Part shown: positions 41,565 through 43,983 of the stretch, in pieces
How the letters are laid out: each line of letters starts with the position of its first letter
How positions within the stretch are numbered: position 1 is the first letter of the stretch
Origin: a virus
IMG/VR virus record: IMGVR_UViG_3300017605_000154
Coordinates: 13,258-77,257 of that record
DNA: 64,000 nucleotides
Direction: 5' to 3' (one strand)
Translations under genes and position numbers: made by a program
Notes under the pieces: generated by a model
The model's input: only the letters and a program-made list of their open reading frames with translations
What the model was told of the DNA's origin: nothing
Database searches by the model: none

Positions 41565-42110
41565 CTATTCTTTCATCAACCATATTTCGGCACTCACTTG
41601 TGCAATTGCCTGCTTCGCCGCATTTTGCAAGCCTCTGCGTTGGTATCGTTCTTTCAATGTCCTATAGCGTCTCCTCCATGATCGACATTCTTGGGTCTTC
41701 GTGCAGAATTGGGCACCGTTACGTGCCCCGACGAGAACTGAGCCGCACGATAAACAGTGCGGACGATTGTGTTCGTAAACTTGTTGTCTCGCATTCGCAA
41801 TCGAATACCCATGATGTAGCAAAATCTCGAGCGCGTTCGCATTACGAGCAAGCCACCGCTCATCCCTACATTTGGGACATAACTTACGGTGCGCCTGATC
41901 TTTTGCGAACCCCTCCCCACAGGAGAGACAGGCGACGGTGGTAACTCCTGAACATTTTGGACACCACCCTGTTACTTCATCTAGCTCATCGACTAACTCT
42001 CCGCAAGATGGACATATCTCAAGATCATGTATGTCGGCAGGGCGCACGGGATCAGTGCGGTCACCATTGCCCGTTACAGCCTCTAGCCCACGCCCTGCCA
42101 ACTCTGTCAA
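41565..42110 (-). CDS. Multi-zinc-finger hypothetical protein
   Basis: Five CxxC motifs. Confidence 0.6.
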   Translation of the reverse strand: MTELAGRGLEAVTGNGDRTDPVRPADIHDLEICPSCGELVDELDEVTGWCPKCSGVTTVACLSCGEGFAKDQAHRKLCPKCRDERWLARNANALEILLHHGYSIANARQQVYEHNRPHCLSCGSVLVGARNGAQFCTKTQECRSWRRRYRTLKERYQRRGLQNAAKQAIAQVSAEIWLMKE

Positions 42111-42673: not shown

Positions 42674-42775
42674 AGTGGAAGGGCCGCTTATGCATCTACA
42701 TGTGCCCGCAGGGGGAGCGAGCATCAAGCAGAAGTTTGCAGCCCTTCCACTTTTTGCGTAGCCGTACTACGCAAA
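42674..42775 (-). promoter_or_regulatory. Structured RNA leader ahead of the Rpf-like gene
   Basis: TTTGCGTAG/CTACGCAAA hairpin plus an 11-bp AGTGGAAGGGC/GCCCTTCCACT stem enclosing inner helices. Confidence 0.5.
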
Positions 42776-42776
42776 C

Positions 42777-42998
42777 TTAGGACACGTCTTCTCCTATGAC
42801 CCCTGGTACCAATTCCCACTCAGGGAAATACTTGTGAAGAGTGTCCATCATGTCTGACTTTTCTGAATACCCCTCCGAGGGCGCGATAATCTCACCGCGT
42901 GGCCCGTCAGCCAGTATGTGAAAATACCAGAGGTTGTTTGTCGTGCGAAAGTATTCGATCCTGCGCTTCGTCTTGTTGCGCTTCAGCAAGTTGCGCAT
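42777..42998 (-). CDS. YegP/DUF1508-like protein
   Basis: IEYFR...WYFHILA...GEIIAPSEGYSEKSD. Confidence 0.7.
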   Translation of the reverse strand: MRNLLKRNKTKRRIEYFRTTNNLWYFHILADGPRGEIIAPSEGYSEKSDMMDTLHKYFPEWELVPGVIGEDVS

Positions 42999-43017
42999 TA
43001 CTCTCCGATCTTCGTTA

Positions 43018-43605
43018 GAGCTACGCCTACCTCAGAGATGGGGGGAGACGCTAACACCTCTGATCCCACCAATTTTGCCACGTATCCCTCGGCGTAGCTC
43101 AATGGGATAGTCCGACCGACCCCTACGAATACGTCGTAGGTTACTCTTGACTACCCCATTCAACTACGGTAGTTCTAGTGTGCGCGGCCTACGGTCATAC
43201 GATGAGTACCAGAAATTTACTCATCTAGCTACGAGTTTGCCGTGAATGATTCCTGGCGCATCATCCATCTTTCCTGTAGTTTGCCACTCTACAGGCACAC
43301 ACTAGTTCTGAAAACTACGGGATAGTGGACTATCGCAGACTTCGTCCACTATCGGGTGATTGGTGAGAGTCTTTGCATTGACCCTTTGTTCTGCGACCAA
43401 AATTGAGCTACGTTGGTTAGCAGACTTGCACATCGTCTCGCTCATGTATCTACTTATTACCGGACGATCGACCCCCGTAGCTCAATGAGCTAGAAGACAT
43501 TCCTCGGTTATGGACTTACCCTATTTGGAAGGCAGTAGCCATAACTCTGTACTCGTACATCTAGCTCATTCAACTACGCAAAGTTTCAACTTTCCCCCTT
43601 GCGCG
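43018..43605 (-). ncRNA. Candidate large structured non-coding RNA / hairpin array with a duplicated module
   Basis: No convincing ORF; CGTAGTTGAATG and CATTGAGCTACG each occur twice, with nested inverted repeats; own promoter. Confidence 0.55.
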
Positions 43606-43616
43606 ATCCTCTGAGG

Positions 43617-43645
43617 AGCGTACTCCCCAGGGCCGCTCCTGTCAA
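43617..43645 (-). promoter_or_regulatory. Sigma-70-like promoter TTGACA-N17-TACGCT
   Basis: Perfect -35, 17-nt spacer, TAnnnT -10, pointing into the ncRNA region. Confidence 0.7.
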
Positions 43646-43752
43646 TGCGTGGCGGCGCGTCCTGGCCGTCCGGAGCGGGGGTCAGCATCGACCTCCCCCC
43701 GCGCTCGGACGCTCGGAGAACGGCTCCTGTGGCCGTACAGAACCTACGAACT

Positions 43753-43983
43753 TTAGAACCCTGCATCCTTTGCCTTACCGCCCTTGCAACCGATATGCGG
43801 ATACCATGCATAGGGATCAGAACCATGCCAGAAGGTCAAACCGCAATCCTCGCAAACTTGCGGAATCTTGGCACTGTATGCCGCGACTCCATGCGGTTCG
43901 TCCCGCCTGTCCTGGGACTTAACGACAACCTTGCGGGCATGCTCGGCGATTGCATCCAACGACTCACTAAAGATGATCTTCAT
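43753..43983 (-). CDS. Hypothetical protein
   Basis: GGAGG RBS; CEDC. Confidence 0.55.
   Translation of the reverse strand: MKIIFSESLDAIAEHARKVVVKSQDRRDEPHGVAAYSAKIPQVCEDCGLTFWHGSDPYAWYPHIGCKGGKAKDAGF

Follow-up and report, generated by a model that had tools for sequence, protein, structure and literature searches.

Introduction

Phage polycistronic transcripts carry RNase III processing hairpins, as in the T7 early sites, the lambda N leader and the SP82 sites, and for lambda N and T7 an RNase III-dependent remodelling of the leader is established. These hairpins have stems of ~20 bp with a conserved internal distortion, are repeated between the cistrons of an early or middle transcript, and can, upon cleavage, remodel a leader and alter the translation or stability of the downstream sequence. 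In three-segment attenuator and riboswitch leaders, a central segment has two mutually exclusive partners, the element lies near the promoter, and folding follows the order of transcription. In the Y RNAs of the Ro60 system (YrlA and YrlB, RF02553), a long stem includes a conserved helix that is distorted, and the interior varies (PMC4201824). The published Ro60 motif is GNCGAAN0-1G (PMC4201824), and with the Ro60 of Thermus phage phiLo a C-to-U change in the motif lowers binding only ~3-fold (PMC12135203). Here, we describe a non-coding stretch at 43 kb in a 64,000-nt window of phage DNA, which spans bases 13258-77257 of a virus record that is complete at 77,257 bp and has direct repeats at its termini. 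This stretch is very probably a transcribed array of functional RNA modules, two of which are copies of an element that we call the ABC cassette: boxes A and B pair to form a clamp around a structured cargo, and box B can instead pair with a third box, C, located downstream.

The A:B hairpins are like Y RNAs in their size (~80-130 nt), in the long stem with a conserved distorted helix and a variable interior, in a motif on the 5′ strand that may be akin to CGAA, and in their tandem arrangement upstream of a gene on the same strand. In addition, relatives hold such units together with Ro60 in this slot, with closing helices of the CGUAG type. They differ in that the window genome has no Ro60, no Rfam match and no tRNA-like domain, and in that the motif is UGAA rather than CGAA; furthermore, Y RNAs have no counterpart to box C, to its covarying alternative helix or to its fixed distance from the ribosome-binding site (RBS). 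Compared to RNase III sites, the clamp sequence is far more conserved, the cargos are large and structured, and B has a dedicated partner in C. In contrast to three-segment leaders, ABC has no U-tract, leader peptide or ligand core, and it occurs in tandem and also ahead of RNA genes. The manA RNA (RF01745) is another phage-borne structured RNA of unknown function, which occupies the same promoter-to-Ro60 slot in L006, one of the related uncultured phage contigs that are denoted here by L-numbers. However, it has no match in the window, and its fold is unrelated.

Results

The ABC Cassettes of the Window

Four RNA modules make up the stretch, in which the cassettes ABC1 and ABC2 flank a hairpin followed by a middle domain of several hairpins. 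A preliminary description of this DNA had reported an A/B/C module occurring twice on the minus strand, and its boxes, stems and coordinates were all correct. Box A (CGTAGTTGAATG) is found at 43578-43567 and 43168-43157, box B (CATTGAGCTACG) at 43487-43476 and 43104-43093, and box C (CGTAGCTC) at 43412-43405 and 43025-43018, all on the minus strand. The complete cassettes are:

43402-43578, minus strand: ABC cassette 1, with A1 at 43578-43567, an upper stem pairing 43566-43560 with 43494-43488, B1 at 43487-43476 and C1 at 43412-43402
43018-43168, minus strand: ABC cassette 2, with A2 at 43168-43157, an upper stem pairing 43156-43149 with 43112-43105, B2 at 43104-43093 and C2 (GGCGUAGCUC) at 43027-43018

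The two upper stems, AGCUAGA/UCUAGCU and GGGUAGUC/GACUAUCC, were verified. Allowing at most one mismatch, CGTAGCTCAAT occurs four times in the window where 1.06 occurrences would be expected, a count that was reached in 0 of 100 shuffles. The covariance model R1 scored ABC1 at 69.6 bits on the sense strand and 30.9 bits on the antisense strand, and ABC2 at 74.3 and 31.6 bits, respectively. In cassette 2, B2 extended by CC and C2 preceded by GG form a perfect 10-bp pairing. Box C of cassette 1, together with the bases that follow it, looks like a D arm (GUAGCUCAAUU..GGU).

The A:B Clamp

Relatives were collected with a profile of the zinc-finger (Zn-finger) protein encoded downstream, which gave 21 viral loci; scanning viral and metagenome contigs for the boxes and the pattern gave more. 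The A...B pattern scan recovered a third cassette in the IMG/VR contig L002/L004, which is distantly syntenic with the window (53% identity in the Zn-finger protein and 57% in the SNF2 helicase). We found 35 homologues of the Zn-finger protein, one of them 90% identical and encoded on a 77.9-kb contig.

Eighteen distinct A:B hairpins were aligned (alignment A7), comprising the two in the window (winM1 and winM2) and those of L004, L013, L016, L017, L038, L118, L115 (a and b), L123 (a and b), L110 (a and b), L125, L119, L116 and L113. In this alignment, standard pairs make up 99.3% of the 306 stem cells, and changes on both sides are seen at 8 of the 17 pairs and in 45 cells; none of 500 shuffles reached these values. 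Since many of the hairpins share descent, the shuffle statistics overstate their independence, a concern that is mitigated by the diversity of the upper stems and by slid controls, in which just 25-46% of cells were paired. The comparison with relatives that had been proposed as a check thus came out in favor of base pairing, and the earlier picture of a conserved scaffold with variable interiors is supported by the 18 hairpins.

The clamp comprises 12 bp, CGUAGYUGAAUG with CAUUGARCUACG, and is near-invariant in sequence, the few positions that vary doing so with covariation. Position 6 is U.G, C-G or U-A among the versions, position 10 is A-U, but G-C in L115b, and position 12 is G-C, but C-G in L110a. 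A G.G mismatch between A8 and B5 is present in all 18 hairpins, and is also kept in a diverged hairpin of L008, in which the basal helix has changed from CGUAG/CUACG to ACAAA/UUUGU. The A box reads GYUGAAUG in 17 of the 18, with the G of UGAA located within the invariant mismatch. Together with the covarying upper stem, the clamp makes up 19-24 bp and carries an interchangeable cargo fold.

The two strands are not equivalent. Read in the sense direction, the 18 hairpins contain 18 G.U pairs and 5 mismatches, while the antisense reading has 1 G.U pair and 22 mismatches, and the sense orientation is the more stable in every hairpin (18/18). The covariance model scored its seven training hairpins at 64-79 bits in the sense and 31-44 bits in the antisense direction; the 11 hairpins outside the training set scored 36-58 bits in the sense direction. 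The structure is strand-specific and single-stranded. Considering this orientation together with the promoter described below, we take the structure to be RNA, which it almost certainly is.

The Alternative B:C Helix

Box B had been predicted to pair with either A or C, and both partners are indeed maintained by covariation. B pairs perfectly, with covarying extensions, to a box C located 31-116 nt downstream. Of 16 cassettes, 15-16 pair the 8-bp core of this helix, GAGCUACG/CGUAGCUC; in 14-15, the helix is extended by three or four bases on the 3′ side of B, which pair with bases on the 5′ side of C. Extension columns +1, +2 and +4 display four to six pair types each, and in L013 and L116 a G-to-A change in box B is compensated by a C-to-U change in box C. 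This covariation in both core and extension indicates that the A:B and B:C helices are both maintained, in competition for B5-B12. In four of seven cassettes, the minimum free energy (MFE) structure is the exchanged form, in which the upper A:B stem is stacked on B:C and A1-8 are single-stranded. The invariant mismatch is located exactly where B would switch partner.

The distance from the end of C to the RBS is 9-12 nt in winM2, L115b, L038, L123, L116 and L113. Apart from a short UUUU past C in cassette 1, there is no U-tract after B:C, and a scan of the sense strand found no terminator-like site.

Gain, Loss and Distribution of the Cassette

The window, L115 and L116 have the promoter and ~45 nt of leader in common, and afterwards differ by whole modules. 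ABC1 is shared by the window and L115, which has an extra ~100-nt module ahead of it; in L116, ABC1 is absent as a unit, and the leader continues directly into the sequence found after C1 in the window. In L123, the arrangement is a tandem A:B-A:B-C, with two bases common to B1 and A2. Cargos are exchanged as well: one cargo fold is located in the A:B loop in L116 and in the B:C loop in L038, and others are common to L017 and L110b, or to L038, L118 and L123a. The module is not a local duplication but a cassette found clade-wide, which is gained or lost as a whole.

Zn-finger and SNF2 genes are found downstream in the pattern-derived contigs L038, L123 and L125, the other pattern-derived contigs being too short to tell. 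The ABC element thus marks one phage clade, consisting of uncultured soil and wetland phages without a cultured relative. Among 185,579 prokaryotic species, represented by one genome each, there were 22 pattern hits, none of which had a complementary upper stem, so that no true copy was found; about 10 of the 22 are shaped like reverse-complemented 5′ halves of tRNAs, and the others look like chance. The region had no blastn match in 50,697 phage records. In cultured phages, the Zn-finger protein had no tblastn match, and PolA is <30% identical to any. An Rpf-type transglycosylase domain in L013 hints at a host in the Actinobacteria or Firmicutes.

A small open reading frame (ORF) of ~40-60 aa, starting MN(P/A)(K/Q)WM.KY, precedes the structured modules in L038 (~5945-5770, minus strand), L113 (732-845) and L123 (2648-2800); it has no counterpart in the window.

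Other RNA Modules and Coding Potential

Between the two cassettes lie the remaining modules:

43321-43353, minus strand: hairpin HPx, GAUAGUGGAC, a 13-nt loop and GUCCACUAUC, with perfectly complementary 10-bp arms
43169-43318, minus strand: middle multi-hairpin domain with outer GUAGUU/AACUAC, from the MFE fold
43305-43295 with 43185-43175, minus strand: closing stem of the middle domain, CUAGUGUGUGC with GCGCACACUAG
Within the middle domain, minus strand: inner hairpins CCUGUAG/CUACAGG, GGAUGAU/AUCAUUC and GAUGAGUA/UACUCAUC

The additional hairpins that had been noted between the modules, namely GAUAGUGGAC/GUCCACUAUC, and CUAGUGUG/CACACUAG enclosing CCUGUAG/CUACAGG and GAUGAGUA/UACUCAUC, are therefore all present. 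Compared to the corresponding stem of L116 (GGUAGCGAAC/GUUCGCUACC), HPx has three compensatory pair changes and no broken pairs; a 22-pair consensus around it, which includes a second helix, has four compensatory changes relative to L116. Four DNA runs yielded just short contigs and a single T>C at 43352, which would convert an A-U pair of the sense strand to G.U; this is too little evidence to build on. The 150-nt middle domain has 39 predicted consensus pairs with L038, of which 11 show double changes and none are broken, and its loop and junction sequences are conserved in L038.

No ORF of more than 47 aa lies wholly within the stretch on the sense strand, in agreement with the earlier statement that it contains no credible ORF. 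The internal micro-ORFs of 47 and 43 aa are not kept in the close relatives L115 and L116. Matches to L038 in tblastx are spread over several frames and both strands, which indicates that the conservation is at the level of nucleotides rather than protein. The 621-nt stretch folds with -238 kcal/mol on the minus strand (z = -5.6 relative to dinucleotide shuffles) and -196 kcal/mol on the plus strand (z = -5.9), making the minus-strand fold more stable by 42 kcal/mol. The local GC content is 0.53 and the cumulative GC skew runs straight through 43 kb without inflection, which speaks against a replication origin.

Comparison with Known Families

Rfam 15 gave no match at gathering score over the whole window, and none at E <= 10 over 42700-43900, where the models searched included YrlA, riboswitches, T-box and manA. 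ARAGORN found neither tRNA nor transfer-messenger RNA (tmRNA) in the window, and a full-text search of the literature for the box sequences returned only unrelated PCR primers. The element is a well-supported structured RNA family for which no description was found, being absent from Rfam 15, with boxes that occur in no relevant searchable paper. The earlier view that the stretch resembles neither tmRNA nor CRISPR was upheld, in the former case by the blank ARAGORN and Rfam results. A CRISPR array or repeat mimic was rejected: successive boxes are inverted, with self-complementary stems between them, and no true module was found in the prokaryotic genomes. The corresponding claim for tRNA stood only in part. 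While neither ARAGORN nor Rfam identified a tRNA, box C and the complement of box B do match the acceptor/D-arm 5′ sequence of many tRNAs.

No sequence within the window reached the YrlA gathering score (69 bits), and the window has no Ro60/TROVE gene within ~4 kb on the same strand; such a gene was found just for the L004 cassette and the diverged L008 hairpin. A tRNA-like T arm, acceptor-like stem and D arm were not found; box C alone is similar to the 5′ half of a D arm. Relative to the GNCGAAN0-1G motif, the A box has U in place of the defining C. On the other hand, with 19-24 bp and the G.G mismatch, all 18 hairpins have the stem of about two turns with internal distortion that is characteristic of RNase III sites. 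Bacterial RNase III substrates are about the size of these stems.

A riboswitch or attenuator class was not supported, the interiors having no common core over the 18 versions and the sense strand no terminator-like site. The suggestion that the variable segments act as guides found no support either: the cargos match other parts of the phage genome over at most 9-12 nt, no better than shuffled sequences do.

The Same Slot in Sister Phages

In L004, L006 and L008, the equivalent slot contains 4-8 tandem units of the form GGUGCGYAG...GGGWUACUUC...GUUCUC, some of which have T and D arms, behind the same type of promoter (L004:700-2270, in record IMGVR_UViG_3300012231_000050; L006:4300-5650; L008:3960-5050). 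Their YrlA (RF02553) scores are sub-threshold, at 43.7, 32.6 and 33.1 bits, and the matches in L004 and L006 fall on units other than the ABC cassette. Directly after the units follows a TROVE/Ro60 frame of 516-543 aa, which is ~72-75% identical among the three contigs. Together, the arrays have the appearance of a Ro60 locus with several RNAs, carried by a clade of uncultured phages. Where the motif would lie, the Ro60-adjacent units mostly have UGCGUAG, and helices of the CGUAG/CUACG type close at least some of them; box A begins with CGUAG as well.

The association between these units and the ABC element varies. In L004, Yrl-like units, an ABC cassette and Ro60 are present within one transcription unit, and the L008 array includes the diverged A:B-type hairpin, ACAAAUUGAAUG with CAUUGAGUUUGU, in which the G.G is retained. 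L006 has Ro60 and no ABC hairpin. The complete genome of the window contains no TROVE, no DUF2828, no relative of the L004 Ro60 and no Yrl-type GGGWUACUUC motif, and no Ro60-type gene was found in the complete relative G005 or the contig G004, both of which have ABC cassettes.

Known RNAs also occur in the slot. A manA RNA (RF01745) is located at L006:5329-5505 (57.4 bits against a gathering score of 55.2), between two Yrl-like units and upstream of Ro60, on a contig that is not a cyanophage by gene content. L118 and L119 have tRNA genes (L118:1848-1929, 56.8 bits; L119:1737-1818, 60.8 bits) tens to hundreds of bases past box C, from which the slot appears to be a general hub for RNA genes.

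Genome Setting

Genes are directed leftward across ~22-64 kb of the window. The region 43000-43650 is flanked by genes of 76 aa (43983-43753) and 73 aa (42998-42777), and the RNA stretch has the same direction as the genes on either side. Beyond the cassettes, its features are:

43617-43645, minus strand: promoter with -35 TTGACA at 43645-43640, a 17-nt spacer and -10 TACGCT at 43622-43617, by direct reading of the sequence
43579-43616, minus strand: conserved leader between the predicted transcription start and cassette 1, near-unchanged in the alignment of the window, L115 and L116
42777-43006, minus strand: RBS GGAGAG at 43006-43001, 11 nt past C2, and first gene of the operon with ATG at 42998, 73 aa, from the ORF list
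42753-42775, minus strand: UUUGCGUAG-loop-CUACGCAAA hairpin right behind the first gene, a perfect 9-bp inverted repeat

The TTGACA-N17-TACGCT promoter is present as originally noted; an identical copy is found in L115 and a near-identical one in L116, where the first ~45 nt of the leader are kept as well. Among distant relatives, L004 (672-700), L008 and L013 have a promoter of the same design, TTGACA-N17-TA(G/A)GCT, at the head of the corresponding non-coding slot. In all, the promoter is kept in five lineages. A consensus promoter scan based on TATAAT omits 43645-43617, whose -10 box agrees with TATAAT at three of six positions. Transcription would start from this conserved promoter, which is of the sigma-70 type.

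The stretch appears to form the ~610-nt untranslated head of a leftward middle operon that encodes DUF1508-like, Rpf-like, Zn-finger and SNF2 helicase proteins, followed by replication genes. The replication module, at 24.7-39.7 kb, comprises a family-A polymerase with a UDG domain, a primase-helicase, an AAA_24 protein, a PD-(D/E)XK nuclease and the SNF2 helicase. The match of the 73-aa first gene to PF07411 (DUF1508) is weak (E = 0.005) and under the family cut-off; a homologue with 64% identity follows the single ABC cassette of L116. Pfam and PHROGs scans of the neighboring genes were almost blank.

The hairpin behind the first gene shares a CGUAG/CUACG core and the UUUGCGUAG flank with A1. 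It has no U-tract and is probably not a canonical terminator. The 181-aa Zn-finger protein (41565-42110, minus strand), with at least four CxxC pairs, is conserved throughout the relatives and in each of them separates the RNA slot from the SNF2 helicase. The predicted model of this protein is confident, with a predicted local distance difference test score (pLDDT) of 83.5, yet no fold match in the PDB (E <= 0.001) and no Pfam family above cut-off was obtained. The protein is at most a candidate partner of the RNA.

Discussion

The reading that we favor, if tentatively, is that ABC is a cis-acting processing and refolding cassette. From the structures, strand, conservation and cassette behavior described above, we infer a course of transcription, cleavage, strand exchange and regulatory outcome that might run as follows. 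During transcription, the long A:B duplex would form first; its length would suit an RNase III-type double-strand nuclease or a helix-binding protein. Once C emerges, or A is cut off, the free bases 3′ of B could nucleate on C, and B5-B12 would then migrate from A to C, halting at the position of the G.G mismatch. This would leave a stable B:C hairpin 9-12 nt ahead of the next RBS, or beside a downstream RNA gene, and the exchange would free the 5′ half of A. In this way, the cassette could set the processing, stability and translation of the downstream sequence, and the cargo hairpins may be released as small stable RNAs. Processing and refolding are favored because of the length of A:B, the imperfect pairing of B with A as against its perfect pairing with C, the covarying extension that resembles a toehold, the location of the mismatch at the boundary of the exchange and the fixed distance between C and the RBS.

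Several observations weigh against this interpretation. The clamp is conserved in sequence, not only in shape, in phages whose neighboring Zn-finger protein is just 35-55% identical; this exceeds what is normal for RNase III sites and points to a sequence-specific binder. The winM1, L004, L118 and L119 cassettes precede RNA modules or tRNAs instead of a start codon, so that a purely translational role cannot be general. A consistent partner that would sequester the RBS was looked for and not found. Finally, the conserved cargo folds, one of which occurs in either the A:B or the B:C loop, suggest that the cargos have functions of their own.

The conservation of the clamp could instead reflect a Y-RNA-like scaffold acting in trans, the main rival reading, which we nevertheless regard as rather doubtful. 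The A:B hairpins, and possibly the B:C hairpins, would then be stable RNAs of 75-115 nt, with the bulged helix as a handle for a host Ro60/Rsr ring or another helix-reading protein, and with a variable cargo that recruits or decoys factors, much as Y RNAs tether Ro60 to PNPase. Hairpin size and stem design fit the description of Y RNAs (PMC4201824), the distorted helix is strictly conserved, and the cargos are conserved and exchangeable. TROVE/Ro60 is encoded directly downstream of the same slot in L004, L006 and L008, preceded by 4-8 tandem units with sub-threshold YrlA matches. L004 joins such units with ABC and Ro60, the L008 array has its diverged A:B-type hairpin, and CGUAG is common to the Ro60-adjacent units and box A. 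In addition, GYUGAAUG of box A corresponds to GNCGAAN0-1G (PMC4201824) with U for C, the substitution that costs only ~3-fold in binding (PMC12135203). This likeness, however, covers 5 of 6 specified positions and has a chance probability of roughly 0.05-0.1 (a rough estimate). Moreover, neither the window genome nor G005 or G004 has a Ro60-type gene, L006 has Ro60 without an ABC hairpin, there is no YrlA match at E <= 10 and no tRNA-like T or D arm, and three of the four tests of Y RNA membership that could be run came out negative. The covarying B:C helix and the constant RBS spacing are also left unexplained by a trans scaffold. They are accounted for by processing and refolding, and the two readings are not mutually exclusive.

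The two exclusive pairings, both of which covary, and the promoter-proximal position would also suit an attenuator or riboswitch in which a metabolite, a tRNA or a protein toggles between the A:B and B:C states, and the acceptor/D-arm sequence at the 5′ side of many tRNAs is an exact complement of box B. But the 18 versions have no conserved core inside the helices, and thus no common ligand pocket; B:C has no U-tract and is thus not an intrinsic terminator; and Rfam contains no matching riboswitch or T-box, making such a sensor improbable. An element acting as DNA, whether an origin, a packaging or recombination site, or single-stranded DNA hairpins bound by protein at the boxes, appears very improbable. 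It would be consistent with boxes of 11-12 bp that are repeated, both directly and inverted, a short way upstream of the PolA/primase-helicase/SNF2 replication module, and with the gain and loss of cassettes among relatives, and DNA hairpins do tolerate G.T wobbles. However, binding of double-stranded DNA cannot account for compensatory changes in variable stems, and the asymmetry is strongly toward the gene-sense strand, with fixed spacing to the promoter and RBSs. There is also no inflection of the GC skew at 43 kb, no AT-rich unwinding region and no recombinase gene nearby. Functionless remnants of decayed tRNA or YrlA-type genes are suggested by the D-arm-like bases of cassette 1 and by the tRNA mimics and tRNAs in the slot of relatives, but decay would not have preserved, in 18 versions from distant phages, 99.3% pairing, compensatory changes and a mismatch that never varies, and we give this explanation almost no weight. 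The sensor, DNA-element and decay readings are each poorly supported.

A more far-reaching reading, and on balance an unlikely one, is that ABC is a self-contained, exchangeable clamp-and-cargo device with a toehold switch. With it, phages of the clade would display or release various small structured RNAs and load them onto a host Ro60-type ring or another helix reader, a protein that they need not encode themselves. If true, this device would be a new class of phage effector RNA, related to Y RNAs yet distinct from them. The family itself unites features that seldom occur in combination: a helix of invariant sequence whose mismatch is fixed, structured cargos that can be interchanged and, for one strand of the helix, a second partner maintained by evolution. 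As its slot holds Y-RNA-like arrays, a Ro60 gene, a manA RNA or tRNAs in sister phages, it offers a comparative handle on the function of Y-RNA-type modules in phages, and on whether host proteins alone suffice for it. The strand exchange, if real, would represent a compact natural RNA switch.

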